Counted from the first letter of the stretch, positions 2 to 20,000 are shown. The stretch: DNA of 20,000 nucleotides from an uncultured virus (IMG/VR IMGVR_UViG_3300006899_000004) (IMGVR_UViG_3300006899_000004); one strand, 5' to 3'. Notes: a model not told the origin generated them from the letters alone. Made by a program: numbers and translations.

Positions 2-448
2 GCGGCTCCGGCGCACCTCGCCAAGGTCGCCAAGGCGCAGCAGAAGCTCGCCCCTCTCTCGGACAGCGAGAAGATGCTCTTCGAGAGCGTCGTCAGCGAG
101 CTCAACAACGTGCCCGGTCGACTCGCCCTCTTCGGAGCGTACCTGGGCATCAAGGCCCGAGCGCTCTCGACGGTCGCTTCGCGGCACCGCGACATCCGAT
201 CCGGTGATCGGGTCCAGGTGATCGCTCCCACCTCCCGGTTCTACGGGTGCACCGGCGTGGTGACGAAGGCCGCCGAGATCCGAGCGTACGTCCGGTTCGA
301 CGGTGCGGGCCCCGCGACGCCGGACGGGTACTTCTTCCTCGCCGATCTCGCTCACGCTCCGGAGCAGGACGCAGAGCCGGAGTTCTTCGAGGATCACATG
401 GAGGAGCCCGAGGTCATCGAGGGCGAGCAGGATCTCGACGGCGAGTGA
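2..448 (+). CDS. KOW/SH3-motif protein with acidic tail, 5'-truncated; paralog of 4982..5647
   Basis: Frame is open from position 2 (AAPAHLAKVAKAQQKLAPLS...) through the track ORF 74..448. Contains IRSGDRVQV...RFYGCTGVVT...IRAYV (KOW-like). Strong GC3 bias; terminator follows. Confidence 0.8.
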   Translation, partial: AAPAHLAKVAKAQQKLAPLSDSEKMLFESVVSELNNVPGRLALFGAYLGIKARALSTVASRHRDIRSGDRVQVIAPTSRFYGCTGVVTKAAEIRAYVRFDGAGPATPDGYFFLADLAHAPEQDAEPEFFEDHMEEPEVIEGEQDLDGE

Positions 449-3927: not shown

Positions 3928-3974
3928 TTTGCTCTCCTTTTAACACAGACGTAAATTTGTTGTCTGTTCTACGG

Positions 3975-4047
3975 TGGGAGCCGTGGGGCTCGAACCCACG
4001 ACCTACGGGTTAAAAGCCCGCAGCTCTACCGACTGAGCTAGACTCCC
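3975..4047 (-). tRNA. tRNA-Lys (TTT)
   Basis: GGGAGTC/GGCTCCC acceptor stem, TAGCTCAGTCGGTAGAGC D-arm, GCGGG-CTTTTAA-CCCGT anticodon arm, GTGGG-TTCGAGC-CCCAC T-arm. Discriminator A is followed by CCG, so CCA is not encoded. Confidence 0.95.
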
Positions 4048-4658: not shown

Positions 4659-4774
4659 CTTTCCCTCTTTCTCCCTCAGTGACACACAGATTAATCGTTG
4701 TGCTGAGACTTAAGTAGCTATGGTCAGCCGCTCAAAAGTTTTTCTGTGTGTCACTGAGGGAGAAAGAGGGAAAG
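4659..4774. repeat. Perfect 32-bp inverted repeat with 52-nt spacer
   Basis: CTTTCCCTCTTTCTCCCTCAGTGACACACAGA (4659-4690) / TCTGTGTGTCACTGAGGGAGAAAGAGGGAAAG (4743-4774). Confidence 0.9.
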
Positions 4775-4981: not shown

Positions 4982-5647
4982 TCAGCCGTTCGCCGCGGAA
5001 TCGAGCTCCTCGTCGCTCTCCTCGACCTCCGCGTCCTCGAAGTCGAGCTCCTCGGCGTCGGCGTCGACCACGTCCTTGGAGGGATCGAAGAGCTCGACGT
5101 CGCTCTTGAAGAGGTAGACCTGACGACCGATGGGCTGACCCGTCGCGCCGTCGACGATGTCGACGTAGCACCGGATCCGGTTGACCGCGGTCACGACCGC
5201 GCGGTGGCCGATGTAGCGAGGATCCGCGCTCGAGCGGATCTTCACCTGCTGACCCGGAGCGAGCTCGATGTCCTTCGAAGCCACCGTCGCCGAGAGGCGC
5301 AGGGAGTGACCCAGGTGAGCGCTGAAGATCTCGAGCTCGGCGGGGGTGTACTTGGCCTTGATGTCCTTGAGGACCTCGGCCAGCGGCGCGGAGAGAGGCA
5401 GGAGGTTCGCGGCCGCCTTGGTGACCTTGGCGAGGTGCGGCACCTTCGCGCCGGGAGCACCGGACTGCTTCGCGGCCTTCTTCGCCTCGCGAGCAGCCTT
5501 CCGCTCGGCGCGCTCTCGCTCGAGCTGCTTCTTCTTCGCCTCGCGCTCCTCCGGCGTGAGCTTCACGCGGGGAGCGACGGGAGCGAGCTTGGTGATCTGG
5601 ACCTGGGCGAGGGCGTTGTTGAGGATCTCGGTCGTGGGATTGCTCAT
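4982..5647 (-). CDS. KOW/SH3-motif protein with basic coiled N-terminus and acidic tail
   Basis: LAPGQQVKI...RYIGHRAVVT...IRCYV; strong GC3 bias; aligns by eye to 2..448. Confidence 0.85.
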   Translation of the reverse strand: MSNPTTEILNNALAQVQITKLAPVAPRVKLTPEEREAKKKQLERERAERKAAREAKKAAKQSGAPGAKVPHLAKVTKAAANLLPLSAPLAEVLKDIKAKYTPAELEIFSAHLGHSLRLSATVASKDIELAPGQQVKIRSSADPRYIGHRAVVTAVNRIRCYVDIVDGATGQPIGRQVYLFKSDVELFDPSKDVVDADAEELDFEDAEVEESDEELDSAANG

Positions 5648-5769: not shown

Positions 5770-6198
5770 TCAATTGAGGTGCCGAAAGTCGGAGGACGCC
5801 GCGGCGCTGATGGGCAGAGTGATAGTGTCACTCGAGGGCACCAGCTGGGGAACCGCAGGGTCAGACACGGTCAGCTTGACCGTGATCTTATCACGAGCGA
5901 TCTCGGTGACCTCGGCCTGGCCATTGCCGATACCAAACGTGACGCGCTCACCCACGCGCAGGCGGCGCGTAGAAGAAAGTACACTCTCGTGCACGTCGAC
6001 CGCGCTAGAGAAGATGTGAAACGTACCCCCGGCGATCGCCGAGGTGATGATCTCGTCGAGACCAGCGCGGAGAGCAGCGTGGTACTTGTTACGCATCGCT
6101 TCCGTGTATGCGGTAGACCCGCTGTGCATCTCGTCTGCGGTTTTGCACAGCGAGTTGTAGTGGAAATTGAGCAGAGCGATGAAATGAATGCCGTTCAT
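5770..6198 (-). CDS. Divergent KOW/SH3-motif protein
   Basis: HIFSSAV...LSSTRRLRVGERVTF...QAEVTEIARDKITVKL parallels EIFSAHL...VASKDIELAPGQQVKI of the neighbour. Confidence 0.7.
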   Translation of the reverse strand: MNGIHFIALLNFHYNSLCKTADEMHSGSTAYTEAMRNKYHAALRAGLDEIITSAIAGGTFHIFSSAVDVHESVLSSTRRLRVGERVTFGIGNGQAEVTEIARDKITVKLTVSDPAVPQLVPSSDTITLPISAAASSDFRHLN

Positions 6199-6562: not shown

Positions 6563-7330
6563 ATGAGAGAGATGAGACTGGACACTCAAATCGCTGGGAT
6601 CACCAGTGAGACAAAGCTCTCAGATCTGAGTGTTCCCAGCGAAATGCGAAAGCGCGTGAAGACAGGAATCGACTGGTGGGACACAGCACTCGGAGGTGGC
6701 GGTCACGTGCCCTCTACAGTGTGTATCCTCACTGGAACGCCAGGCTCTGGAAAGAGCACGTTGCAACGGCAGCTCGCATCCAGTTTGATTGGTCAGGGAC
6801 ACATTGTTCTCTATAACACTGGCGAAGAGAATCTCTATCAAGTCAAGATGGCAACGGAGCGGCTCGGCATTGCTGAAGACTTCTACGTGGGCCAGCACAT
6901 CTTTGTCGATAATCTTCTCGCTCACGCAGAGAAACTTCGTTCTGCGAATACAGGAAAACGAATGTTTCTGTTTCAAGATTCACTGCAGACTTTGAATGAC
7001 GGGTACTATAAAGACGGAGGAACGACGGGAAATACTCCCGTTCGGTGCATCGAGAAGGTGATCGATTGGTGCAAGAGCACCTATTCGATCGGAATCGTGA
7101 TCAATCAGGTCACGAAGTCTGGAGAGTTTGCTGGAAAGCAAACAATCATTCACGCTGTCGATGCTCGAGTTCACCTGTACATCGACGAAGATCCTCGCTC
7201 ACCCACGTACGGATCTCGCGTCTTTGAAGTCCCCAAGAACCGCTGGGGCTGCTCGGGTATCACGACCGTGCTCAACATGAAAGAATCTGGTTTGGACCAC
7301 CAGTGTTCTTACGTCAAAGGCGCAGTCTAA
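6563..7330 (+). CDS. radA: RadA/Sms-like RecA-fold ATPase (ATPase core only)
   Basis: Walker A GTPGSGKST, Y.TGEE, Walker B LFQDSLQT, QVTKSGEFAG..I.HAVD and KNRWG (RadA KNRFG signature). No N-terminal C4 zinc finger or C-terminal Lon-like domain. AGGAG RBS. Confidence 0.85.
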   Translation: MREMRLDTQIAGITSETKLSDLSVPSEMRKRVKTGIDWWDTALGGGGHVPSTVCILTGTPGSGKSTLQRQLASSLIGQGHIVLYNTGEENLYQVKMATERLGIAEDFYVGQHIFVDNLLAHAEKLRSANTGKRMFLFQDSLQTLNDGYYKDGGTTGNTPVRCIEKVIDWCKSTYSIGIVINQVTKSGEFAGKQTIIHAVDARVHLYIDEDPRSPTYGSRVFEVPKNRWGCSGITTVLNMKESGLDHQCSYVKGAV

Positions 7331-8346: not shown

Positions 8347-8637
8347 ATGTTTGGTTTTCGAACAAACCCTAAAGTGCTCATCGAACAAGTTGCACACAGC
8401 ATGTACGATGAGTACGACCGTGCGGGTTTACATAAACGGGCTCTCGTCAAAGTAGACGGAAAGAAAAATCCAGAATCTAAGTTGTATGAGGTGTCTGTTT
8501 CTGTAAATGGGAAAAAGATCTGTCAGAACTCTGACAGTGACTGGCGTACTGCATACAAGAAACTTCTTCAGACCCTGAAAGATACCAAGGGAGAGTGCAA
8601 GGCTCCCACGGATGGAGTAAAAAACGATCATGGCTAA
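8347..8637 (+). CDS. Hypothetical protein (96 aa)
   Basis: ORF immediately after promoter motif; overlaps the ATPase start. Confidence 0.75.
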   Translation: MFGFRTNPKVLIEQVAHSMYDEYDRAGLHKRALVKVDGKKNPESKLYEVSVSVNGKKICQNSDSDWRTAYKKLLQTLKDTKGECKAPTDGVKNDHG

Positions 8638-9760
8638 AACGCAAATGCACGTTCGAACCGTGCTCTCGGTGGTGCCGCAGCTTCCTGCTGCGATCTCGGT
8701 CTTGTTCAGAGGAAATCACGGTATCGGAAAGAGCCAGGTCGTGGCTCAACTCCGGAACCTGATCAAGGAGAGTGACCCCAATCTTGGGGATTTTCCTCTC
8801 ATCGACAGGCGTCTCTCTCAGTTGACTGAGGGTGACATCATCGGTCTTCCTTCGACTGACGGTGAGGTGACTCGATTCAACCCGCCCGACTGGTACAAGC
8901 AGGCGTGCAACAAGCCTGCGTGTCTGTTCCTCGACGAGCTCAACCGTGCAACTCCCGAGGTCATGCAGGCGGCATTTCAGATTGTTCTTGATCGGACCCT
9001 GAACGGTCAGAGCCTACACCCGCAGACTCGAGTGTTCGCTGCGGTCAACGATTCTGGTGCGTACACCGTCAACGAGATCGACCCCGCTCTGCTGGATCGA
9101 TTCTGGGTGGTGGATCTGAATCCCGACGTGGACGACTGGCTCACTTGGGCTCGGAACGTTGGGATCCATGATCACATCACGGGATTCATCGCAGCGAATC
9201 CCAAGTTCTTGGATCCTCACAAGAACGTTGAGCCGGGTGCTGTGTCTCCGTCCCGTCGCTCGTACGAGCGTCTGGACATGAGCTTGAAATGTGCTGGGAT
9301 CGAAGAGAAGCCCAATGACGATCGATTCTACTCGATCGCTGCAGGGTTCCTCGGTGTCGAAGCAGCGCAGGCTTTCTCTGCTCACGCCAAGAACAACGAC
9401 CTCCGCGTTCTTCCCGAGGAGGTCGTCAACAGTTACAAGAAGGTGCAGAAGAAGGTGCAGAAGATGTCGATCGAGAGGCAGGTCGACCTCACTGCGAAGC
9501 TCTCAGACTACTTCGCCGAGAAGCCCGAGAACCGAAAGTTCAGCGACAAGGTGCTTGGAAATCTCGATCTCTTCATGCAAGACATCACGCCTGAGACTCG
9601 CTTGACGTTCTTCACGAATGTCATCCGAAGCTGCGGCACCGACACCGCCGCGATGGCAGCCTTCAACGCAAAGGTGAACTATCAAGTACTTCAGTTATTC
9701 GGTGTGAACGCTGACGGTACTGGCGAAGTGAAGGTACCTGACTTCCTCGAAAAGAAGTAA
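8630..9760 (+). CDS. MoxR/AAA_5-like AAA+ ATPase
   Basis: Walker A GNHGIGKS, EGDIIGLP, Walker B LFLDELNRA, sensor-1 AAVN, DPALLDRF arginine finger, SRRSYE sensor-2. Confidence 0.9.
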   Translation: MAKTQMHVRTVLSVVPQLPAAISVLFRGNHGIGKSQVVAQLRNLIKESDPNLGDFPLIDRRLSQLTEGDIIGLPSTDGEVTRFNPPDWYKQACNKPACLFLDELNRATPEVMQAAFQIVLDRTLNGQSLHPQTRVFAAVNDSGAYTVNEIDPALLDRFWVVDLNPDVDDWLTWARNVGIHDHITGFIAANPKFLDPHKNVEPGAVSPSRRSYERLDMSLKCAGIEEKPNDDRFYSIAAGFLGVEAAQAFSAHAKNNDLRVLPEEVVNSYKKVQKKVQKMSIERQVDLTAKLSDYFAEKPENRKFSDKVLGNLDLFMQDITPETRLTFFTNVIRSCGTDTAAMAAFNAKVNYQVLQLFGVNADGTGEVKVPDFLEKK

Positions 9761-9764
9761 AGGC

Positions 9765-10232
9765 GTGTCAGCACCAAAGCTGATATCTAGCAGCACCATG
9801 CAACTAGCAAAACTAGTTGCATGGTGCTCTTGTCACAGTCTGAATGTTACCATCAGAGAAGGTAATTTTCAGGGCGAAAATATGGCTTTTTTTTGTGACG
9901 ATTCTATCACTGTCACAAAACAGAAAAAAGCGCAAGAGACAGTGTGGCTTCTTCTCCACGAGATTGGACACTATCTTGTAACAAAAAAACATCCCAATAG
10001 GTACAAAAACGGATATCCTCACAGAGAAAAACCAAAGAAAAATTTGTTAAAGGCTGTACACTATGTCTCTATTCTTGAAGAAGAGATAGAGGCGTGGAAT
10101 CTTGGAAGAGAACTGAGCAAAGACTTGAAATTCAAGTTCTCAGTCTCAGAATTTGAAAAGTACAAAACAAGTATGCTTAAATCTCACATCACGTGGGCGT
10201 ACCTGAAACTTTCAAAAGATAGTAGTCTCTAA
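9765..10232 (+). CDS. Putative zinc metallopeptidase (HExxH; ImmA/IrrE-like)
   Basis: LLHEIGHY plus downstream EEEIEAW third-ligand helix. Confidence 0.7.
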   Translation: MSAPKLISSSTMQLAKLVAWCSCHSLNVTIREGNFQGENMAFFCDDSITVTKQKKAQETVWLLLHEIGHYLVTKKHPNRYKNGYPHREKPKKNLLKAVHYVSILEEEIEAWNLGRELSKDLKFKFSVSEFEKYKTSMLKSHITWAYLKLSKDSSL

Positions 10233-11135: not shown

Positions 11136-11143
11136 AAGAAGAG

Positions 11144-11179
11144 AGAAAAAGCTGGAAGAAATTCCAGCTTTTTCTTTTT
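11144..11179 (+). terminator. Intrinsic terminator
   Basis: AGAAAAAGCTGGAA-GAAA-TTCCAGCTTTTTCTTTTT. Confidence 0.85.
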
Positions 11180-11209
11180 CAAGAAAACTTACGTGAGGAT
11201 CATATCTAC

Positions 11210-11497
11210 TTGGATCATGTGATTTCTAACAAAGAAATTCCAAAGCGTGGAGACACAATCATTATTTCTTCAAATTGTGTAGAACACTGGTACAGTTATT
11301 TTATCTTGACAAAGAACCCAACTATGGTAACACCAGAACACGAAATAGAACACACAGCATGCTTAGTACACGATATTCTCATACCTGTGATTGAGATAAA
11401 AGTGTTCAAGACTCGTGTTGACGTAGACAGATATTCTGTCAAGATAGGAATGTCTTGTTTACACAAAATCAGTGATAACTTTTGGAGTAATTTTTGA
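11210..11497 (+). CDS. PGD-motif array gene 1
   Basis: PKRGDTIII; TTG start with GAGG upstream. Confidence 0.65.
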   Translation: MDHVISNKEIPKRGDTIIISSNCVEHWYSYFILTKNPTMVTPEHEIEHTACLVHDILIPVIEIKVFKTRVDVDRYSVKIGMSCLHKISDNFWSNF

Positions 11498-11498
11498 C

Positions 11499-11527
11499 GT
11501 GTAACGCTCTGTGCGCCGTGGTACAGT
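11499..11527 (+). promoter_or_regulatory. Recurrent promoter motif, probably leaderless
   Basis: GTGTAA-N17-TACAGT; ATG at 11534. Confidence 0.7.
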
Positions 11528-11533
11528 CGTGTC

Positions 11534-11809
11534 ATGGATTTAGCACCTGGCGCTGCGCCTTTGGTTGGTGATATACTGTTGCACTATGGAACAGTAGAAA
11601 TTCGCGTAGTGACCAAGTCAACTTTTTTACACATCTCTAGTGAACACTTTGTTTTCAACTTGAAGTGCTTCTCTCTAGACGAAAATAGAGATCACTATCT
11701 CAGATTTATTTTCCATCCCGAGTTTACCGATCGCCGACCGTCACGCTCAAACGCAATTTGGAGAGTTTATTTTAGTCATGGTGATGCTTTCCCATACAGT
11801 AAAACTTAA
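11534..11809 (+). CDS. PGD-motif array gene 2
   Basis: PLVGDILL. Confidence 0.75.
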   Translation: MDLAPGAAPLVGDILLHYGTVEIRVVTKSTFLHISSEHFVFNLKCFSLDENRDHYLRFIFHPEFTDRRPSRSNAIWRVYFSHGDAFPYSKT

Positions 11810-11812
11810 AAC

Positions 11813-12166
11813 ATGAAACAAGTAGACATCGATCTGCTGAAACCCGGGAAGATCATCATTTATTCTAGCGCTTATGAAACATCATGGATGACTGCAATGT
11901 ACGCTATTGTGGTTGATTGTGTATATGATGAATCACTAATATATGACCAATATATCAAGATGAAAAAACTCAAACAAGAACAGTGTATTATTGAGTTCAT
12001 AGTCATCTGTGCAACTGAACAACGACTCTCAACAAGAACAATACCCCCTTTTAAACACTTCAAAGTGTCATTCCGTCTGTCTGAATCAGACACCAAAGGC
12101 AGGGATATCTTTAAGTTAGACTACACGAAAATCTCCAGATACATTAACAGAAATCCATTCTTATAA
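11813..12166 (+). CDS. PGD-motif array gene 3
   Basis: LKPGKIII...YAIVVD. Confidence 0.75.
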   Translation: MKQVDIDLLKPGKIIIYSSAYETSWMTAMYAIVVDCVYDESLIYDQYIKMKKLKQEQCIIEFIVICATEQRLSTRTIPPFKHFKVSFRLSESDTKGRDIFKLDYTKISRYINRNPFL

Positions 12167-12390
12167 TGTACAAAATCGTCAAAACTGGAGATCTGTTTAA
12201 TCCCGATGGTCCTTTAAAGGGATTAGTGCTAAACATCAAATTTCTCCACGCCCGGTGGGTCCCACGGGGAATTACTGGTCCTAGTTTTTACGATGAAACA
12301 GAGTACACGTATGAACTTCTAATCTTTTGGTTTCACAACAAAACAACGTGCACGTGCAACTATTACTGCAACACACCACTTAAGTGTTAA
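12166..12390 (+). CDS. PGD-motif array gene 4
   Basis: VKTGDLF...GLVLNI; TAATG coupling. Confidence 0.75.
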   Translation: MYKIVKTGDLFNPDGPLKGLVLNIKFLHARWVPRGITGPSFYDETEYTYELLIFWFHNKTTCTCNYYCNTPLKC

Positions 12391-12677
12391 TCAAAGAGAC
12401 ATCTTTGACAACACAAACAAAACAAGGGGAATCCAACCTCAAGTTAGGTGAAATTATCTATTTTTTGCGTCACGGAAACGTAAAAGAAATCTTATTTGTT
12501 CTGTCGATAAAACAGAACAACAACTTCAACTTTTTAAAAGTGCACGAAGTGATCTGTTACAACGTTTCTAAAAAGAAACAATGCACTTACAACATCACTA
12601 TCTACTCAAGTTGGGGAAAACCTTTCTTCACGCTCACAGAAGGTATCAAATTGTTTGATTCTTCAAGCGTATGGTGA
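12384..12677 (+). CDS. PGD-motif array gene 5
   Basis: LKLGEIIY...LFVLSI. Confidence 0.7.
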   Translation: MLIKETSLTTQTKQGESNLKLGEIIYFLRHGNVKEILFVLSIKQNNNFNFLKVHEVICYNVSKKKQCTYNITIYSSWGKPFFTLTEGIKLFDSSSVW

Positions 12678-12702
12678 GCTGAGAACAAGAACACTGCATG
12701 AA

Positions 12703-12731
12703 GTGAATTCTGCTCTGCAACTTGGTAAGAT
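12703..12731 (+). promoter_or_regulatory. Internal array promoter motif
   Basis: GTGAAT-N17-TAAGAT in the only sizeable gap of block 1. Confidence 0.65.
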
Positions 12732-12769
12732 AGCCATATTCTGCTACGAGTGTACAGAAAGAGAGTGCC

Positions 12770-13069
12770 GTGAGAACAGATCTGTTGCCCGGTGATCTTA
12801 TCATGATAGAAGATTCCGTTGGTACTGGAACGACGCCGGCAATTGTGTTTAGCATCAGTGATCTATTGAGATCTTATCATGAATTTTCTTGGCCGCGCCT
12901 AAGAAACGCGCCTCTACCAAACGTCTACAACGTCAAGTGTTTTCACGTACAAAAACAGAAGTATTTTACCTTAGAAGTGTATCCTGACTATCTTCTTTGT
13001 GAAGACAGTCCAGGAGAGTTTCGGCTGCCCGCGAGTGCGATCCACCACAGAGAGGAGCTAGAACAGTGA
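12770..13069 (+). CDS. PGD-motif array gene 6
   Basis: LLPGDLIM...AIVFSI. Confidence 0.75.
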   Translation: MRTDLLPGDLIMIEDSVGTGTTPAIVFSISDLLRSYHEFSWPRLRNAPLPNVYNVKCFHVQKQKYFTLEVYPDYLLCEDSPGEFRLPASAIHHREELEQ

Positions 13070-13353
13070 AAAACGACAAAAACAAGAACGTTGGTCAAAT
13101 CATCGTTGCAGAAAATGTCAATTCACTAGTTCTCAAGATCGGTAAAAAGTACATTCCTTTGTGGGGTCATTACGATCGCTTCAAGCGAACAACTCTTTCA
13201 AGACACACGAGGCCAGTAGTCAAACTTAAGTTGCTGAACCTAGACGCAAATCCTTCAAAAGAATATGTGATTGAAGCGTACCATGATTTTCAGTTTCTGT
13301 GGGAAAAGGGAAAATTAGTTCTGCCAGATGAATACATTTACAATATTCCCTGA
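13066..13353 (+). CDS. PGD-motif array gene 7
   Basis: KNVGQIIV...SLVLKI; GTGA coupling. Confidence 0.75.
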   Translation: MKNDKNKNVGQIIVAENVNSLVLKIGKKYIPLWGHYDRFKRTTLSRHTRPVVKLKLLNLDANPSKEYVIEAYHDFQFLWEKGKLVLPDEYIYNIP

Positions 13354-13367
13354 TCAGAGTTTATGTA

Positions 13368-13718
13368 ATGAATTTCCCTCCCAAAGCACTCGTCCAAGTT
13401 GGCGACCTTGCCAAGATAGACTGTTGGCACCACTACAATTTTCGAACTCACGCAATTGTTCTTGAGATCTTGTATCGAGGTATCACATACCCACGCGAAA
13501 TACACGCTTGGAACGTAGTGTCTTGCAGCGTTGAAGAACGTGACATGTTTGTGATCACAACCCAGCACACTCATTTTCAAAAAGAAATAACTGACAACGT
13601 GTGGTTGTTTTCTGACAACAACATGTCCACGCTGTCGGTCGTTCCGCTATCACGTTACAAATTTCGTAAAGATCCTTACAGAGACCGAGTGCTACACTAC
13701 ATCGCAGAAATACTCTAA
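13368..13718 (+). CDS. PGD-motif array gene 8
   Basis: VQVGDLAK...AIVLEI. Confidence 0.75.
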   Translation: MNFPPKALVQVGDLAKIDCWHHYNFRTHAIVLEILYRGITYPREIHAWNVVSCSVEERDMFVITTQHTHFQKEITDNVWLFSDNNMSTLSVVPLSRYKFRKDPYRDRVLHYIAEIL

Positions 13719-14036
13719 ATGTATAAAGAAATACTTGATCTTCAATCTGGTGAATTCTTACTGCTCTTTGACAGTTGGAGCAACACGCTCTACTACACAC
13801 TAGTGATCGATCTAAACTTTCCGTCTGAAGATTACTGGGCACAGGTACGGAGATCTAGGCGCACTCGCCCAATTGAGAGACTACCAGAAGACAATGTCAT
13901 CGTGTTGCGCTTGTACAGTTTTCTCCACAAGAGCGTGGGGACAGTGGGCGTATTTGACAATTGCGGAGTGCTATCAGACGGAAAGTTTGCAAGACTGTTT
14001 AGCACAGACATCCACTACAACTCATTTGGAGTGTAA
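13719..14036 (+). CDS. PGD-motif array gene 9
   Basis: LQSGEFLL...TLVIDL. Confidence 0.75.
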   Translation: MYKEILDLQSGEFLLLFDSWSNTLYYTLVIDLNFPSEDYWAQVRRSRRTRPIERLPEDNVIVLRLYSFLHKSVGTVGVFDNCGVLSDGKFARLFSTDIHYNSFGV

Positions 14037-14038
14037 AG

Positions 14039-14371
14039 ATGCTCGATGTCATTGACAAGAAACTCAACCAAGGAGACATCGTTGGTTTCAAACTGTTTGA
14101 ATATGTCACTCACAGAGGCATCCCAAAGCGTGAAGTCTTAAGATCTCTAGTGTTGTACATAGAAGAGTGTCCTGTTGGTCTCAAACTAGTCATTGATGGA
14201 GAAGAAGATCAAGTGCGAATCCACCTATGCAGTCTAGATCCTAGTCGACGTAAGAAATTCTTCCTTGAAGTCAAAAAAGAATACAAGCTCATTCACAAGA
14301 ACGGTGAACTAACGCTTCCAAACAAGCACATCTACTACAACTCTTTCTTTTCAGACAGACGACGTGAATGA
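14039..14371 (+). CDS. PGD-motif array gene 10
   Basis: LNQGDIVG...SLVLYI. Confidence 0.75.
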   Translation: MLDVIDKKLNQGDIVGFKLFEYVTHRGIPKREVLRSLVLYIEECPVGLKLVIDGEEDQVRIHLCSLDPSRRKKFFLEVKKEYKLIHKNGELTLPNKHIYYNSFFSDRRRE

Positions 14372-14682
14372 TAAAGAAACTCCTTCCAGGTGATCTGGTC
14401 ATAATTGACAGCCGCAGCACAGCGTTAACTGATTTACGCTGCACTGCTCTTGTTATTCACGTGACAACTGAAGTCTCAAATACTCATTTTATGAGAGACA
14501 CAATCTACTGCTATGGTCTAGACGGTCACAAGGTAGTGTTTTCACAGCACCCTGGAACGTACGTTCCTAGTTCTAAGAATCCTGATCTCAGACCAGTTCG
14601 TCCAAACAAGTCAGAGATCTGCAAGTTCTTTGTTGAAAATTTAGCAACGTTCTATAAAACGACACACTGCGACAATGCGTGA
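14368..14682 (+). CDS. PGD-motif array gene 11
   Basis: LLPGDLVI...ALVIHV. Confidence 0.75.
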   Translation: MIKKLLPGDLVIIDSRSTALTDLRCTALVIHVTTEVSNTHFMRDTIYCYGLDGHKVVFSQHPGTYVPSSKNPDLRPVRPNKSEICKFFVENLATFYKTTHCDNA

Positions 14683-14977
14683 AGACGTGTTAAACTCTGG
14701 AGCTTTGGTCTGGATCGAAACTTATTACCCCACACACACAGATGTTCTAGCGGTTGTTCTTAAAGTTGACACCGACGTGCAGTTCAGCGTCGGTCACTTG
14801 GGCAAAATCACGCAGTGGCAACACGGAGCAGGCGCTGCTGCATTGACCGTGCTCTGTGTCAAAGAGAACACAACAAAACAAATGATATGTTACTTAGATG
14901 ACATCACCGAAGGGCGACGCAATCTTATTGCGTATGGTTTGCATGAGAAATCTTCGTCTTTGATTCAGAGAATCTGA
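14675..14977 (+). CDS. PGD-motif array gene 12
   Basis: LNSGALVW...AVVLKV. Confidence 0.75.
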   Translation: MREDVLNSGALVWIETYYPTHTDVLAVVLKVDTDVQFSVGHLGKITQWQHGAGAAALTVLCVKENTTKQMICYLDDITEGRRNLIAYGLHEKSSSLIQRI

Positions 14978-15285
14978 TGCTGATCCCAGGATCACTGATC
15001 ATTACAGACGTAGAGTACTATCGCATTAACAACGAACCCACTCTTGTCTTAGCGCTAGATGATGCACCTGAAGTGCTAAAACCTGGCATGTCGAAATTGG
15101 GAGATCATCTCGCTAACAACAAGCGGTGGCAGTACGACAACCTCATGACAGTAACGCTGTACTGTCTGATCAATAGACGGATGCTCAAGCTCACAGTTCT
15201 AAAGTCAATAGAACACGAACGGGATGGGATTCTCTATAGTCTTAACAGTCACTACGTGCTTCGGATTGAAGAAGATTATGAGTGA
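14977..15285 (+). CDS. PGD-motif array gene 13
   Basis: LIPGSLII...TLVLAL...RWQYDNLMTVTLYCL. Confidence 0.8.
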   Translation: MLIPGSLIITDVEYYRINNEPTLVLALDDAPEVLKPGMSKLGDHLANNKRWQYDNLMTVTLYCLINRRMLKLTVLKSIEHERDGILYSLNSHYVLRIEEDYE

Positions 15286-15574
15286 AGACGAGTTAAAACC
15301 TGGAACTTTCATCAAAGTGTATGACTATAATCTTTCTTACAATCCTAAATCAATTATAGCAATTGTTTTGGCGGTCAAGACTGATCACTCACTCCAGTTA
15401 ACAGACTCGTTAACTCAGCGTAGTTACAGTGCTACAGAAGTAACCATGCTCTACGTTCAAAACGGCAGAGTAGAGAGATCGCTTTTCTCTACATTGTCAC
15501 TGTTTCAGTGGACTCTGCGCAAAGATGCTAGCTCTTATAGCACGCAAACAAGAGTGCAGATAGTGAGAACTTGA
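15278..15574 (+). CDS. PGD-motif array gene 14
   Basis: Likely ATG 15278 (MSEDELKPGTFIK...AIVLAV). Confidence 0.75.
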   Translation: MSEDELKPGTFIKVYDYNLSYNPKSIIAIVLAVKTDHSLQLTDSLTQRSYSATEVTMLYVQNGRVERSLFSTLSLFQWTLRKDASSYSTQTRVQIVRT

Positions 15575-15888
15575 TGCTGATCCCAGGATCACTGATCTTC
15601 GTAGGTACAGATATACACAATACTCTCAACACTCCCGTGCTTGTCGTGGAGCGAAGAGATCCCCCAATCGAACTCAAATCAGATTCACTGCGATTTAAGT
15701 TATCGTACTATGCCGCAACTGACCCAGAACGGTGGCAGTACTCTAATCTCATCACAGTTACGCTGTACTTTCTGTACGACAGAGAGACATTCAAGCTCAC
15801 AGTACTAAAGTCAATAGAACACAACCGCGTAGACAAAATTTCAGCTTATTTGTTTGACGGACGCTACGTTCTTCGATACGAGAGTTAA
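15574..15888 (+). CDS. PGD-motif array gene 15 (close paralog of gene 13)
   Basis: LIPGSLIF...RWQYSNLITVTLYFL...KLTVLKSIEH. Confidence 0.8.
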   Translation: MLIPGSLIFVGTDIHNTLNTPVLVVERRDPPIELKSDSLRFKLSYYAATDPERWQYSNLITVTLYFLYDRETFKLTVLKSIEHNRVDKISAYLFDGRYVLRYES

Positions 15889-15903
15889 AATCTTGAGTGA
15901 GTC

Positions 15904-16188
15904 ATGCTTAAACTCGGTGATTTGGTCAAGATAGACAATATCGGTCTGAAAGAAGAAGCACTTGTCTTAGCATTGGGCACGGTGCCAGAAAGATTAAAAC
16001 CATTTGTCTCAAACATCAATTACAGTGAGTGTTGGCACTTTCCTAACCTCATAACTGCGACACTGTATTGTCTGAACAGCACGAGGACTATCAAGTTGAT
16101 AGTTAAAAAAACGTTCTTCCCGTACCGTGAAGACCCTAACGCGATCGTTCTAGATCACTATAACATTCTGCAGGAGTACGAAGAGTGA
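15904..16188 (+). CDS. PGD-motif array gene 16
   Basis: LKLGDLVK...ALVLAL...WHFPNLITATLYCL. Confidence 0.8.
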   Translation: MLKLGDLVKIDNIGLKEEALVLALGTVPERLKPFVSNINYSECWHFPNLITATLYCLNSTRTIKLIVKKTFFPYREDPNAIVLDHYNILQEYEE

Positions 16189-16473
16189 AGAAGGTTGTGG
16201 GTGACTCATGCTTAAAACCAGGTGACTTGGTCAAGATACACAACCTCTTCATAAAAGACACTGCAGTTATCATAGCGTTAAATGACAATGCGCCGAGCGA
16301 AACAGTGATATTGAAGTTGTACTGTTTAAATGCAATGATGAATGCCAGCGTGACAGTAAAACGATCGTCCGCTGCGCGAAGAGACGACAGTGTGATCTTT
16401 CTCGCGAGCTCTGACATTCTGACAACAATGTACTCATGGTCGCTATAGCGCTCTGGGGAAGTACGAAGAGTGA
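16185..16473 (+). pseudogene. PGD-motif array gene 17, frame-disrupted paralog of gene 16
   Basis: ORF 16185..16448 has LKPGDLVK. The ATG at 16208 homologous to gene 16's start is out of frame (extra A), and the homologous C-terminus (GRYSALGKYEE*, stop at 16473) is in a third frame. Confidence 0.55.
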
Positions 16474-16561
16474 AGATACACATTTCGCGAGCTCGAACGC
16501 GAAAAATTCTGACTCTCTGAGACTCAACTCTCTCTGGGTGCTCTCTGTGCAGTTCTAAGCT

Positions 16562-16921
16562 AGAAGTATTAGCTTTTGCTGCTAGTCGAACACTGTGTTC
16601 TGCAGTCTTTCTTGACCCAATTGCACACAGATGTTCAGGAGTGCAAATCTATGCAGAAGTATACCCTTGCACCGGGGTCGAACGCTGCAAATCGACAGCT
16701 CTCGAGACACAATTCAACACAGATGCATCTCGTTGCAATAATGAGCAGAAGTATTAGCTTTTGCTGCTAGTCGAACACTGTGTTGCGCTGTCTCTAAGCA
16801 CTCAAAGCAGCACAGACGCTCTTGAGAACAAGTTGTGTCTAAAGTATAAGCTTTTGCTGCTAGCAGAGTCGCTGTGCACTACGCGCAGCACTCGACACTG
16901 AGTCGCGCTGAGTTTGTTGAC
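16562..16921. repeat. Four degenerate ~93-bp tandem repeats
   Basis: Units start at 16562, 16655, 16747, 16840. Units 1 and 3 share an identical 38-mer AGAAGTATTAGCTTTTGCTGCTAGTCGAACACTGTGTT; AAGTAT opens all four, and GTCGAAC.CTG and CACAGA recur in register in units 1-3. Confidence 0.85.
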
Positions 16922-16974
16922 AAAGTATTTTCAATTTATTTTCAGTCAAAAAGTATTTTGAATTTATTTTCAGT
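16922..16974. repeat. AT-rich 25-bp duplicate, 28-bp period
   Basis: AAAGTATTTT(C/G)AATTTATTTTCAGT at 16922 and 16950. Confidence 0.85.
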
Positions 16975-17170
16975 TGAGTGCACTTTTTTTGCGAAAAGCA
17001 GTCCCCTCATCCATACTTAAATTGTGACACTCTCTGGTGCGCTCTCTCACAAACATATCAGAGCACACAGACGTTATCTAGACCAAATCAAATCATAAAC
17101 TCCCCCTCGAGTGCACAGAGAGACTCCCCTTCTGTGCGCTGAGTCACTAGCTAAGTATCCACTCACTCAA

Positions 17171-17199
17171 GTGAATTGTTCGCTCTTCTGTGGTATGTT
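17171..17199 (+). promoter_or_regulatory. Recurrent promoter motif, probably leaderless
   Basis: GTGAAT-N17-TATGTT; ATG at 17205. Confidence 0.7.
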
Positions 17200-17204
17200 G
17201 TCTC

Positions 17205-17498
17205 ATGTGGACTTCCGAACTCCTGAGACCGGGCGACATCATCGTTCACAAGTCAGAAATTGTCATGATCTGGGAGATCGTTGAGACAGATCGTACAAGC
17301 AACGTCACCAAACAGACATGCACGATCTGTTCACTCACTGGTTACTCCAACCTTCACTGTTTTTTTACCACGAAGTTCATCGATTTTCGGTACACGCCAG
17401 ACTTTCTCCCGTCTGAAGTGGAACTCCACTCTATCAAAGAGGGATCTAGAGTCTTTGTGGTTGGAGTCTATGTTGACGGAGCCATTGTACATGACTGA
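17205..17498 (+). CDS. PGD-motif array gene 18
   Basis: MWTSELLRPGDIIV...KEGSRVF. Confidence 0.8.
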   Translation: MWTSELLRPGDIIVHKSEIVMIWEIVETDRTSNVTKQTCTICSLTGYSNLHCFFTTKFIDFRYTPDFLPSEVELHSIKEGSRVFVVGVYVDGAIVHD

Positions 17499-17506
17499 GG
17501 CGCGAG

Positions 17507-17793
17507 ATGTGGACTTCTGAACCTTTTAGACCGGGTGACTTGATCTTCAAAGACGGTTTTTTGTTGTTATGGTCTTGAAGATCGATAGAACAGAGCTCGC
17601 AGACAGACTTAACTTGTCGTACGTGCAAGAGTGCAGGCTACAACTTCTCACTGGCGAGCACGTTCCTCACGTCTTCACCCAAAAGTGTGCTTGTTTTTGG
17701 TACTCTCCGCGGTTGCTTGACTGTGAAGCTGATATCTCGATCCTCCAAGAGGGATCTCGGATCTTTAAGTCCAACTGGAACATAGCGTTTTGA
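17507..17793 (+). pseudogene. PGD-motif array gene 19, single frameshift
   Basis: MWTSEPFRPGDLIFKDG joins ORF 17569..17793 (...QEGSRIF) by a -1 shift at T6 (17557-17562). Confidence 0.7.
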
Positions 17794-17808
17794 GAAGGAG
17801 TTAAAGCA

Positions 17809-18170
17809 GTGTGGATCACAGAGCCTGCAAGAGCAAGAGACATTCTGATCAGTGACCAGGTGGATCACGACAGCTATTTCTTTCTCGCCATAGTCTTGAG
17901 TGTTGTCCGCGCGGAACTCATGGATAACATCGCTCTGTACAGGCAAGTCTGCAGAGTGCAGGTGGTGGGCTCTGAGTTTGTTCCTGTCTTCTTTGAGAAA
18001 GATCATTTGTTTCTCCCCAAAAACTCACGCTCAACGAGTATGTCTGTCACATGTGGTACACAGAAGACCCTTCACAGAGAGACAACGTTCGTCACCTTAA
18101 ACACTTCTATCCGATCTCTGAGACTAAAGAGGGATCTCGGATCTTTAAGCTCAAGAAACACGGGTCCTGA
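17809..18170 (+). pseudogene. PGD-motif array gene 20, single frameshift
   Basis: MWITEPARARDILI...AIVLSV. The family-like C-terminus (NEYVCHMWY...KEGSRIFKLKKHGS*) is in the -1 frame; likely shift at C4A5 (18015-18023). Confidence 0.7.
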
Positions 18171-18185
18171 ACGAGAGAGCAGACA

Positions 18186-18578
18186 GTGTTTGCCCTAGAT
18201 GAACTCAAAGTCGGAGATGTTCTTGTTTTTTCCCAGCGCGAGAGAGAGCAGGAGACTCTGCGATCATCCGAGATCCCACAGTCCTGTGTGACTGTGATCT
18301 TGAAGATCGTCAGCGCAGAGAGAATCTCATTTCACATGGTGAAACAAAAGTGCATGCTGCAGATGTTATCCTCTGTCGGAGAATCTGGATCGATCATTTA
18401 CTTGCCAGATCTCTCGAATCGAACTTTGTCGCCCAGGAACGAATTTTATGCTAATTTTGTGTATTACCTCCCAGAGTATTTCACCCTCAGCCCAGAGTTG
18501 AGATCACAGATCAAACAATATGTTCATCTCCAGCCCGCGGCTGAGGGATCTCGGATCTTTGTCGCAACAAAAAGATGA
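18186..18578 (+). CDS. PGD-motif array gene 21
   Basis: LKVGDVLV...TVILKI...AEGSRIF. Confidence 0.8.
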   Translation: MFALDELKVGDVLVFSQREREQETLRSSEIPQSCVTVILKIVSAERISFHMVKQKCMLQMLSSVGESGSIIYLPDLSNRTLSPRNEFYANFVYYLPEYFTLSPELRSQIKQYVHLQPAAEGSRIFVATKR

Positions 18579-18838
18579 AGAAGACCAGATTGACCCCCGG
18601 TGATTTGGTTGTTCTCACGCTTCCTGGAGCCTCATTTATGAGCGGAATCGCTATCGTCTTGTCCGCAGGCGAACTGTGCACCTTCCGAGGACGTTCTATG
18701 ATGCAGCAGTGCAAGCTGTTTGTCTTTGAGAAGAACTGTTACGAGTTCAAGGTCTACTCTCTGTCAGACACTGTCTATCTGCGCCCCCGTGAGCTCGCCG
18801 TCGTAGACAACAAGATCTTTAAAATCAAGTTCACATGA
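18575..18838 (+). CDS. PGD-motif array gene 22
   Basis: LTPGDLVV...AIVLS. Confidence 0.8.
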   Translation: MKKTRLTPGDLVVLTLPGASFMSGIAIVLSAGELCTFRGRSMMQQCKLFVFEKNCYEFKVYSLSDTVYLRPRELAVVDNKIFKIKFT

Positions 18839-19107
18839 GACCCACAAGACAACACAAAGATCTCTGTCTTGGTGACATTCTGATTGCTGCGAACATTTCG
18901 TACCTTATCATTGAAGTCAAAAAGACATGGATTCCTTCTCGTCCCGAGTGGACGGGTGTTAAAGGAATGATCATCGTGTCTTCATCCAACGTTCCAGAGT
19001 TATCAGTCTTTGCAACAAAGAACATGATTGTCGCACCGCAAGACCTAATCTTTGAAGCTAAAGACGGAAGATCCAAGATCTGGCTCTTGAGACCAAATTA
19101 CAAATAG
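18835..19107 (+). CDS. PGD-motif array gene 23
   Basis: LCLGDILI...YLIIEV. Confidence 0.8.
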   Translation: MRPTRQHKDLCLGDILIAANISYLIIEVKKTWIPSRPEWTGVKGMIIVSSSNVPELSVFATKNMIVAPQDLIFEAKDGRSKIWLLRPNYK

Positions 19108-19109
19108 AA

Positions 19110-19421
19110 ATGAAACACGAACTTGCTCCCGGCGACATCATAGTCTATGTTTACAATCGAACTTACCCAGTTCAGGTTGCAGTTGTCACAAACATCACTG
19201 TGCCTGACTTTCCAAACATACACAATCACAAAAGTGCTATGGTGCAAGTTCTGCTTGCGTGCAAGTTAAATGACATGCCCAAAGACAGCAAATGGAATCT
19301 AGAAAACAACAGTTATCCGACAGTGAGAAAGTATGTCTTCCCGTTAGAGCGTCTAGAGTTAAAGTTTATCTTTGGACGCACGAAGATCTTCTTCTATGAC
19401 CCGGAGTTTTACAAAAAGTGA
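19110..19421 (+). CDS. PGD-motif array gene 24
   Basis: LAPGDIIV...AVVTNI. Confidence 0.8.
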   Translation: MKHELAPGDIIVYVYNRTYPVQVAVVTNITVPDFPNIHNHKSAMVQVLLACKLNDMPKDSKWNLENNSYPTVRKYVFPLERLELKFIFGRTKIFFYDPEFYKK

Positions 19422-19696
19422 TCACTAAACTGATAAACCCGGGTGATTTTATCGTGGAAAGTTATGATAACGTACACCCGGTGAGCGTACTGTTAGTTCT
19501 AAACGTAGAATTCACTTTAGGTGGGTACGTGTACATACAACATTTGTTTCTCTGCTCGCTTCTCTCTAGTTCTAAATTCAGTTATTCCACGCCTCGAGGT
19601 CCTGTTCAGGATACCTTTGTAGTAAGCAATTTGACGTGTAAGACACTGACGAAACAACAAAAGATCTTCCTCTATAACATAGAGGTACTAAAGTGA
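19418..19696 (+). CDS. PGD-motif array gene 25
   Basis: INPGDFIV...LLVLNV. Confidence 0.8.
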   Translation: MITKLINPGDFIVESYDNVHPVSVLLVLNVEFTLGGYVYIQHLFLCSLLSSSKFSYSTPRGPVQDTFVVSNLTCKTLTKQQKIFLYNIEVLK

Positions 19697-19935
19697 TCTC
19701 TCCGGGAAACATAGTTCTGTTTCAGTATTCTAATAACTACGATCCAAGATCTGTGATAGAGCAAATTGGTGTTGTCATACGTGTATATGGTGATACTACC
19801 ACGTGGTATTTTAAGGCTAAATTGTTAGTCGTTGAGTGGAAAAGTGACCACAAACACGTTAAAGAGTGTTATTTGTTGTACAACTCGTTAGCCACCACAT
19901 ATCCCAATGTATTCACGTATTACGCAGAAAGATAG
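19693..19935 (+). CDS. PGD-motif array gene 26
   Basis: ISPGNIVL...GVVIRV. Confidence 0.8.
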   Translation: MISPGNIVLFQYSNNYDPRSVIEQIGVVIRVYGDTTTWYFKAKLLVVEWKSDHKHVKECYLLYNSLATTYPNVFTYYAER

Positions 19936-19940
19936 TTTAC

Positions 19941-20000
19941 ATGGAACACAACACAGTGCGTCCAGGTGACATCATCTTTTTCCACCGACGATATACATAC
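19941..20000 (+). CDS. PGD-motif array gene 27, 3'-truncated by window end
   Basis: MEHNTVRPGDIIFFHRRYTY. Confidence 0.7.
   Translation, partial: MEHNTVRPGDIIFFHRRYTY

Follow-up and report, generated by a model that had tools for sequence, protein, structure and literature searches.

A tandem array of small, predicted SH3-like barrel genes as an unclassified, actively recombining family expansion in an uncultured jumbo phage

Why would a phage carry at least 27 small, dissimilar genes in a row, and do these genes form one family? The question is raised by a gene array in IMGVR_UViG_3300006899_000004, a sequence of an uncultured virus, of which one stretch of 20,000 nucleotides (nt) was analysed (the window, with positions counted from its first letter). 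From position 11210 or 11219 up to the window end, 27 co-oriented open reading frames (ORFs) were found on the + strand, designated o1 to o27. The last is cut by the window end; the other 26 are complete or frameshifted. The ORFs are 74–130 amino acids (aa) in size and coding sequence makes up 89% of the array stretch. Of the 26 junctions, 14 overlap, nine have a spacing of 0–15 nt and three are longer (36, 92 and 756 nt). An initial annotation of this DNA had counted at least 27 consecutive small ORFs with overlapping or near-adjacent stop and start codons, and this count was confirmed (23 of 26 junctions). The array is not unbroken, however: the 756-nt spacing is a non-coding gap that splits it into two blocks of 17 and 10 genes. 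Shine-Dalgarno-like words were found for 7 of 27 array genes, against 6 of 13 genes left of the array in the window, and this scarcity would fit translational coupling. The start motif described below is present in o27 at the window edge, and the array goes on past position 20000. A reading of the array as an assembly artefact was rejected, as 18 sequencing runs contain 70–95% of its sampled words. The array was judged to be real: a jumbo phage has expanded an unclassified gene family that is actively recombining.

All members had been proposed to begin with a common N-terminal motif. Within the first 30 residues, this motif was present in 23 of the 25 full-length members tested, and o19 and o27, which were left out of the test, both show it on translation. 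The proposal fails for o20, which has no motif glycine, and for o1, a near-miss. A motif no commoner than in random small phage ORFs is contradicted by the chance level (mean 0.57 and maximum 4 members in 2000 shuffles) and by the comparison sets, with 4 of 41 annotated T4 coding sequences of 60–142 aa and none of eight small genes on the window's left carrying it. Pairwise identity among members is low (median 17%, maximum 49%). Against profiles built with one member left out and its close paralogs removed, 16 of 25 members outscored 99% of the shuffles, with o20, o1, o15 and o4 the weakest. The likeness reaches past the motif to β2, β3 and the last strand. Four subfamilies were recognized (o13/15/16/17, o18/19/20/21, o24/25 and o7/10) with E values of 1e-22 to 1e-5 in addition to DNA repeats, and the only conserved residue is the motif glycine; no basic patch is kept across members. 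By these sequence comparisons, a probable common ancestry is supported for most members rather than for all. Expansion by local duplication, also part of the initial annotation, is recorded in the DNA itself: a two-gene unit of about 600 nt is duplicated (o12-o13/o14-o15; repeats D12, D13 and D2 at a spacing of 597–606 nt), and o16/o17 and o18/o19 are further duplicates at DNA level.

AlphaFold2 models of o16 (pLDDT 79.4, pTM 0.72) and o10 (pLDDT 78.5, pTM 0.70, confident in one of five models) are mainly β. The best structural match of both is EfpL domain I, with Z 5.7, a root-mean-square deviation (rmsd) of 3.6 and 60 aligned residues for o16, and Z 6.6, rmsd 2.9 and 63 aligned for o10. The next rows are domain I of EF-P/IF5A, Spt5/NusG KOW, Tudor (including the UvrD C-terminal Tudor), PWWP and other SH3-type chains. 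For the matches 8s8u, 6s8z, 8put, 5ohq, 6if4 and 6kco in the PDB, Z was 4.3–6.6 over 48–64 aligned residues at 9–19% identity, and such Z values of models indicate a common arrangement only. Atlas models of o16 and o24 (pTM 0.61 and 0.59) likewise had SH3-like neighbours; their nearest clusters are unnamed, with scores below 0.9. Three of the 27 members, from different subfamilies (o10, o16 and o24), are therefore predicted to be SH3-like small β-barrels of the KOW/Tudor/PWWP type, with Z under 7. The single KOW/SH3-like scaffold of the initial annotation survives in its SH3-like part, in two AlphaFold and two Atlas models, but no curated Pfam KOW family was reached; the proper fold label is ‘SH3-like barrel’ and ‘KOW’ is a resemblance. 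The proposed variable loops on a fixed barrel agree with the predicted folds, loop lengths and sequences differing between copies; in a rough pattern assignment, the β1-β2 loop spans 2–20 residues and the β2-β3 loop 5–37.

Tudor and other Royal family readers have a conserved aromatic cage, and EF-P and IF5A carry a conserved modified-residue loop and additional OB domains. Among the array members, one column only is aromatic in more than 50% of sequences (16 of 23, in the last strand), in an alignment that is poor in the loops. EF-P, EfpL and IF5A domain I, Spt5/NusG KOW, Tudor and PWWP have the SH3-like barrel in common with the array, and a long protruding hairpin is found in EF-P. Unlike these proteins, to which identity is 9–19%, the members have no curated family hit, no further domains and unconserved loops. 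The features of EF-P in particular were not found: the members are single domains of 74–130 aa, the equivalent loop is unconserved and there was no EF-P hit in Pfam or NCBIfam. A characterised function for the family was looked for in Pfam, PHROG, NCBIfam and PADLOC, and none fitted. In Pfam, none of 26 proteins matched at any cut-off and no KOW model was listed at E ≤ 1; PHROGs gave no significant match for the same number. A profile search of 1.84 billion proteins returned 16 hits, 14 of them self or close alleles and two unrelated. With o25 and o15 as queries, metagenome contigs gave no match, and viral contigs contained no match to a DNA pattern taken exactly from the end of the window, so that the array could not be followed beyond position 20000. 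Isoelectric points (pI) range from 5.2 to 9.7 and net charges from −5 to +6, with 5 of 25 members acidic (pI 5.2–5.7); this spread would fit a set of different partners more readily than a single nucleic-acid ligand. On inspection, the members showed neither a signal peptide nor a membrane segment.

Sequences from other strains add to the initial annotation an ongoing loss, replacement and chimera formation of array genes. In two of four runs examined, o18 is precisely absent (joint 17204>17507, from the o18 start to the o19 start, with 11 letters that fit either side), and the loss runs through 5′ sequence common to o18 and o19. In the same two runs, o24-o25 is replaced by 193 other letters (joint 19132>19673), the left break lying at the Pro-Gly codons of the motif. 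Three database alleles (P0003, P0169 and P0171) are o13/o15 chimeras, among which crossing over took place at two or more points; others are a deletion of eight residues in the β2-β3 loop of o6 (P0008) and a fusion of o1 and o2 (P0215). The latter two genes are in frame across a single TGA (11495–11533), which P0215 reads through to give a tandem protein of 196 aa. The frameshift of o19 lies at a T run in the assembly; all four runs examined have one more T, and the frame is apparently intact there. Recombination at short stretches common to the paralogs, either the conserved 5′ motif or the β3 segment, thus duplicates, removes, replaces and splices the copies.

The array genes are also constrained. 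Divergence at non-synonymous sites (dN) was below that at synonymous sites (dS) in all of eight paralog pairs, with dS from 0.8 to saturation, so the copies are under coding constraint; loop-directed positive selection, for which a dN/dS check had been suggested, is not demonstrated by these values. Several members (o11, o16) have a single protein allele over 20–27 contigs. Counted over full-length alleles, leaving out 13 partial alleles, the fusion and four o13 alleles that are chimeric or broken, variable sites were more frequent in 24 members (78 of 2367) than in three conserved neighbours (7 of 852; p 3e-5). Within members, loops (31 of 730) varied more than strands (11 of 552; p 0.026), with loop boundaries drawn by a rough heuristic after the variants had been seen. 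Both constraint and turnover are thus properties of the array genes. In the one metatranscriptome run examined (four contain the stretch), contigs cover genes and non-coding gap alike, which is no evidence of expression.

Related phages were searched for similar arrays. In a motif scan, three of five whole records contained clusters in which small SH3-like ORFs lie densely on a single strand: G002 (150–182 kb, 20 ORFs), G003 (55–87 kb, 30 ORFs) and G006 (86–99 kb, 21 ORFs). All three clusters adjoin an ortholog of the RadA-like gene of the window. A further record, G001, has a small SH3-like cluster at its broken end. At least 10 motif ORFs were present in 11 of 40 flanking loci, some of them near-duplicates, against a background of 0–9. 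No window member had a tblastn hit in the related records at E ≤ 0.001, and a genome search of seven related records with the window profiles gave no match. The same kind of cluster beside the RadA-like gene, with no orthologs of single members, suggests that the scaffold is kept while the members turn over. The proteins of the relatives' clusters are shorter (medians 66–92 aa, against 98 in the window), frequently have a Gly-Trp in the fourth strand which the window members lack, and gave 0 of 63 matches at the Pfam cut-off. Their profile aligned with that of the window over the first two strands only (30 columns, probability 85%, E 6e-6). Cross-phage profiles hit 7–10 of 25 window members, a partly circular result as the relatives' ORFs had been picked by the motif, and the A2/A4 profile comparison was discounted since three rows are common to both. 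Among 8000 candidates no longer, fused forms of the relatives' family were found, which is weak evidence. From these comparisons, the window array is taken as a long-looped, lineage-specific version of a clade-wide trait. A protein tree left 71 of 93 inner branches open; its labels group by phage more than shuffled ones (35 versus 52.4 changes), and one origin per phage is neither supported nor refuted. The relatives also have a second paralog family, with an N-terminal leader of the type ‘L-x-E-L-R-x-I-I-R-E’ on unlike bodies (L122:11671–14263, L001:13307–13666 and G003 at about 87.4 kb).

Small SH3/LSm-like families, large paralog expansions and modular shuffling are already known from phages. 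The available part of PMC12152347 describes GoF, MotB.1 as well as Frd.2 of the Tevenvirinae as an ‘LSm-like fold’ family of early, non-essential proteins with dissimilar sequences and one predicted five-stranded barrel of SH3 topology, their function being open. The array resembles this family in having a small predicted SH3-topology barrel on dissimilar sequences. According to the same text, the T4 genes are three and dispersed, have a separate C-terminal domain, are nearest to FeoA/Hfq and are conserved across T4-like phages, whereas the array consists of at least 27 tandem coupled genes, is nearest to EF-P domain I, KOW and Tudor, and lacks orthologs even among related phages. The best 50 structural rows for the o16 and o10 models included neither FeoA nor Hfq nor an Sm chain. 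The window profile scored at most 2.6 bits on 41 small T4 coding sequences (GoF and MotB.1 included, Frd.2 outside the stretch compared); the GoF/MotB.1/Frd.2 family is itself invisible to simple sequence search. In the passage available from the Viral AlphaFold Database paper (10.1101/2025.05.14.653371), SH3/Tudor-like small barrels are the largest structural clusters restricted to viruses of bacteria; this passage deals with how common the fold is among phages and reports neither tandem arrays of paralogs nor recombination within them. For Bacillus phage G, the portion of PMC7824862 at hand reports a lineage-specific expansion of about 35 zinc-ribbon proteins with a proposed function, a MoxR-vWA pair, and one SH3 protein beside a polymerase. 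The two cases are alike as jumbo phages with tens of genes for one small domain, and unlike in that the zinc ribbons have another fold and a proposed DNA-binding role; that portion of the text mentions no cassette exchange. PeSL-mediated modular shuffling in the hyperplastic regions of T4-like phages relies on short shared sequences, at which recombination adds, removes or replaces small genes, as far as the available text of PMC4122927 goes. PeSLs are described there as intergenic promoter/terminator elements that swap unrelated genes, whereas breaks in the array lie in coding sequence common to the paralogs and yield chimeric proteins. Boundaries of the PeSL type were not found in the array, given its tight junctions, its breaks in coding sequence and a single sigma-70-like site on the + strand, located inside the gap. 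The words SH3, KOW, Tudor and barrel do not occur in the main text of the EVADES preprint (10.1101/2025.06.06.658234) or of PMC12363180, nor does SH3 in PMC13573597, and no description of tandem SH3-barrel arrays was found in the literature searched, most subscription papers being outside its reach.

The role of the array is predicted to be that of a recombining repertoire of cytoplasmic binders, with a probability of about one half. The two blocks would form translationally coupled early operons. The β1-β2 and β2-β3 loops of the barrel and the C-terminal tail vary from copy to copy, and through these loops each cytoplasmic barrel may bind another macromolecule of the host, either a protein or a ribonucleoprotein. 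Such binding would serve takeover or counter-defence, the array being a swappable binder repertoire. A bolder version, which is tentative, sees an antibody-like library of SH3-barrel binders in a widespread clade of jumbo phages: a fixed barrel with two hypervariable loops, its cassettes recombined at conserved scaffold codons into new loop combinations, each copy possibly neutralising a different host defence or housekeeping target.

Several results weigh against a binder repertoire. The structural matches are middling (Z < 7), the members modelled with AlphaFold are two of 27, no match reached E ≤ 0.001 when the models were compared with PDB and BFVD in Foldseek, and a common fold says nothing on function. 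Leave-one-out profiles missed 9 of 25 members, and NCBIfam, PADLOC and PDB sequences gave significant matches for none of 25. The same motif scan found no dense cluster in G004 (91% complete), so that the array may be dispensable in the clade or may escape the motif. Positive selection was not demonstrated in the paralog pairs, where dS is near saturation, and relaxed constraint also yields an excess of variable loop sites; besides the late choice of loop boundaries, 90% clusters conceal those alleles that have diverged most. Within the 40 of 240 variant rows listed, unrelated small genes on the window's left likewise show mainly amino-acid changes (3 of 3 and 4 of 5 codon changes).

The barrels might instead be modulators of RNA or of transcription/translation, like NusG/Spt5 KOW or T4 GoF/MotB.1/Frd.2, which would tune phage gene expression through binding to RNA, to RNA polymerase or to the ribosome, and not through many different host proteins. 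We consider this unlikely. The top structural neighbours (EF-P/IF5A domain I, Spt5/NusG KOW, UvrD C-terminal Tudor) point this way, as do three weakly matching KOW-like proteins on the window's left and, in the available part of PMC12152347, the three sequence-dissimilar early barrel proteins of T4, a mutant of one of which stabilises RNA; by the same source, wild-type GoF and MotB.1 have no such effect. At least 27 divergent copies, 5 of 25 of them acidic and with no conserved residue other than the motif glycine, are hard to square with one ligand, and the window profile barely scores on small T4 proteins.

It is similarly improbable that the array is a mostly neutral gene nursery, in which a cheap, stable barrel multiplies as shared 5′ ends and overlapping junctions ease in-frame duplication and loss, most copies having little or no current function. 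Consistent with it, whole genes are lost in two of four runs with no evident compensation, a junction remnant is present at 16440–16476, o19 is frameshifted in the assembly, G004 has no dense cluster, and the T4 barrel paralogs are non-essential in the laboratory as far as PMC12152347 is available. Against this stand dN below dS in all eight pairs, by which copies stay open and constrained over long times, the single protein alleles of o11 and o16, and the apparently intact o19 frame in all four runs.

A role as decoys that mimic EF-P domain I or the tRNA acceptor arm, with the long β2-β3 hairpin offered to host enzymes or to defence effectors targeting tRNA or translation, is very doubtful: EfpL/EF-P/IF5A domain I tops the lists of both models and the most variable loop sits at the tip of the same long hairpin, but the Z values lie within about 1 of the KOW/Tudor/PWWP rows at 9–16% identity, and loops of 10–35 residues with no sequence common between members are unlike a mimic of one fixed substrate. 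That the genes are not one family but unrelated small genes with a short start motif selected as a recombination or translation junction is hardly credible, for although the low median identity, the nine members failing leave-one-out, the match to relatives confined to two strands and the open tree would allow it, similarity extends past the motif, subfamilies are backed by E values and DNA repeats, and SH3-like models were obtained for three members of different subfamilies.

The coordinates of the array genes and of the main elements around them are listed in Table 1.

Table 1. Array genes, context genes and non-coding elements in the window.
Feature	Position	Strand	Description
RadA/Sms-like ATPase	6563..7330	+	Context gene; ortholog flanks SH3-like clusters in G002, G003, G006
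MoxR-type AAA ATPase	8630..9760	+	Context gene; clade marker
Hairpin with A/T tails	11137..11181		Directly upstream of array; terminator-like or leader stem-loop; 14-bp perfect inverted repeat 11144–11175
o1	11210..11497	+	92–95 aa, start TTG 11210 or GTG 11219; motif near-miss; leave-one-out not significant
o2	11534..11809	+	SH3-like member, 91 aa
o3	11813..12166	+	Member, 117 aa
o4	12166..12390	+	Short member, 74 aa; profile support weak
o5	12384..12677	+	Member, ≤97 aa
o6	12770..13069	+	Member, 99 aa; allele P0008 without 8 residues of β2-β3 loop
o7	13066..13353	+	Member, 95 aa; subfamily with o10 (E 5e-6)
o8	13368..13718	+	Member, 116 aa
o9	13719..14036	+	Member, 105 aa
o10	14039..14371	+	Member, 110 aa; predicted SH3-like barrel, long hairpins
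o11	14368..14682	+	Member, 104 aa
o12	14675..14977	+	Member, 100 aa; opens duplicated two-gene unit o12-o13/o14-o15
o13	14977..15285	+	Member, 102 aa; gives N-half of o13/o15 chimeras
o14	15278..15574	+	Member, 98 aa
o15	15574..15888	+	Member, 104 aa; identity to o13 49–52%
o16	15904..16188	+	Member, 94 aa; predicted SH3-like barrel, β2-β3 insertion with helix
o17	16185..16448	+	Member, 87 aa; o16 paralog, short loop; closes first block (block A)
Non-coding gap	16449..17204		756 nt between blocks; repeat-bearing; without convincing gene
o18	17205..17498	+	Member, 97 aa; missing (17205–17506) in 2/4 runs examined
o19	17507..17793	+	o18 paralog; frameshifted in this assembly
o20	17809..18198	+	129 aa; without motif Gly; profile not significant; C-terminal DNA repeat common to o18, o19, o21 (D5, D7)
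o21	18186..18578	+	Member, 130 aa
o22	18575..18838	+	Member, 87 aa; scores best in the window against the array profiles of relatives (17 bits)
o23	18835..19107	+	Member, 90 aa; most polymorphic (16 variable sites)
o24	19110..19421	+	Member, 103 aa; replaced together with o25 in 2/4 runs
o25	19418..19696	+	Member, 92 aa; subfamily with o24
o26	19693..19935	+	Member, 80 aa
o27	19941..20000	+	Cut by window end; motif present

In the gap, a second copy of the o16/o17 junction (16440–16476) is followed by a short repeat present three times (16562, 16747 and about 16842), an AT-rich direct repeat of 25 nt (16922 and 16950) and T runs; Rfam gave no match. This layout recalls a replication origin or regulatory region, and the AT skew switches sign nearby. 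Elsewhere in the window, an intergenic inverted repeat with a stem of about 30 bp was found at 4659–4774, for which Rfam gives sub-threshold miRNA-type matches only.

The left half of the window contains the RadA-like and MoxR-type ATPases, an M78-like peptidase, a tRNA-Lys and small genes. The MoxR ATPase is followed by the M78-like peptidase (8630–10232) with no vWA-peptidase partner within the window, and a gene of the vWA-peptidase type was seen near the MoxR ATPase in L001, L002 and L122 by ORF inspection. The tRNA-Lys(TTT) lies at 3973–4047 on the − strand, and G003 likewise has a tRNA-Lys(TTT) beside its RadA-like gene. Weak KOW/SH3-like hits were obtained left of the array at 4982–5647 (−), 74–448 (+) and 5770–6198 (−), with KOW6_SPT5 (E 0.007), NdhS (E 0.019) and ProQ_C (E 0.0075); unlike array members, the 4982–5647 protein is kept in five related records or loci groups. 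At 2661–2662, between two small genes, three runs have contigs that end or contain additional sequence (X9 loose ends; X12 with a 3-nt offset), suggesting an insertion site.

With the MoxR ATPase as marker, 42 viral loci were found at 38–55% identity, and no cultured phage was closer than about 33%. The complete relative G003 (298 kb) encodes a major head protein, large terminase, baseplate hub, sigma factor, GroEL, UvsX-like recombinase and DnaB, a content which identifies the clade as jumbo tailed phages. The longest contig with proteins of the window phage measures 284,379 nt, and its genome is suggested to be similar in size. The phage was found in wastewater, river and sludge, with 18 runs containing at least half of the words and eight studies in all. 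Marker hits were also present in six loci of five metagenome-assembled genomes of mixed phyla, two of these loci (L121 and L122, on two different phage-like contigs of the clade) in one Bdellovibrionota bin. With their phage-like gene content these were judged likely misbinned, and they are a weak host hint at most.

The locus is best explained as an accessory region, plastic in its content, in which an uncultured jumbo myophage has expanded single-domain SH3-type barrels in a lineage-specific way. Barrels of the SH3/Tudor-like type rank among the most frequent phage folds that lack annotation. One locus with at least 27 natural variants of one scaffold, together with deletions, swaps and chimeras at strain level, offers a panel for asking about target-specific binding. 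If the members are target-specific binders, the array would represent a recombination-driven diversification of host-interaction proteins, and could supply new anti-defence proteins as well as scaffolds for small binders. If they are not, it would clearly exemplify the accordion evolution of a gene family in phages.

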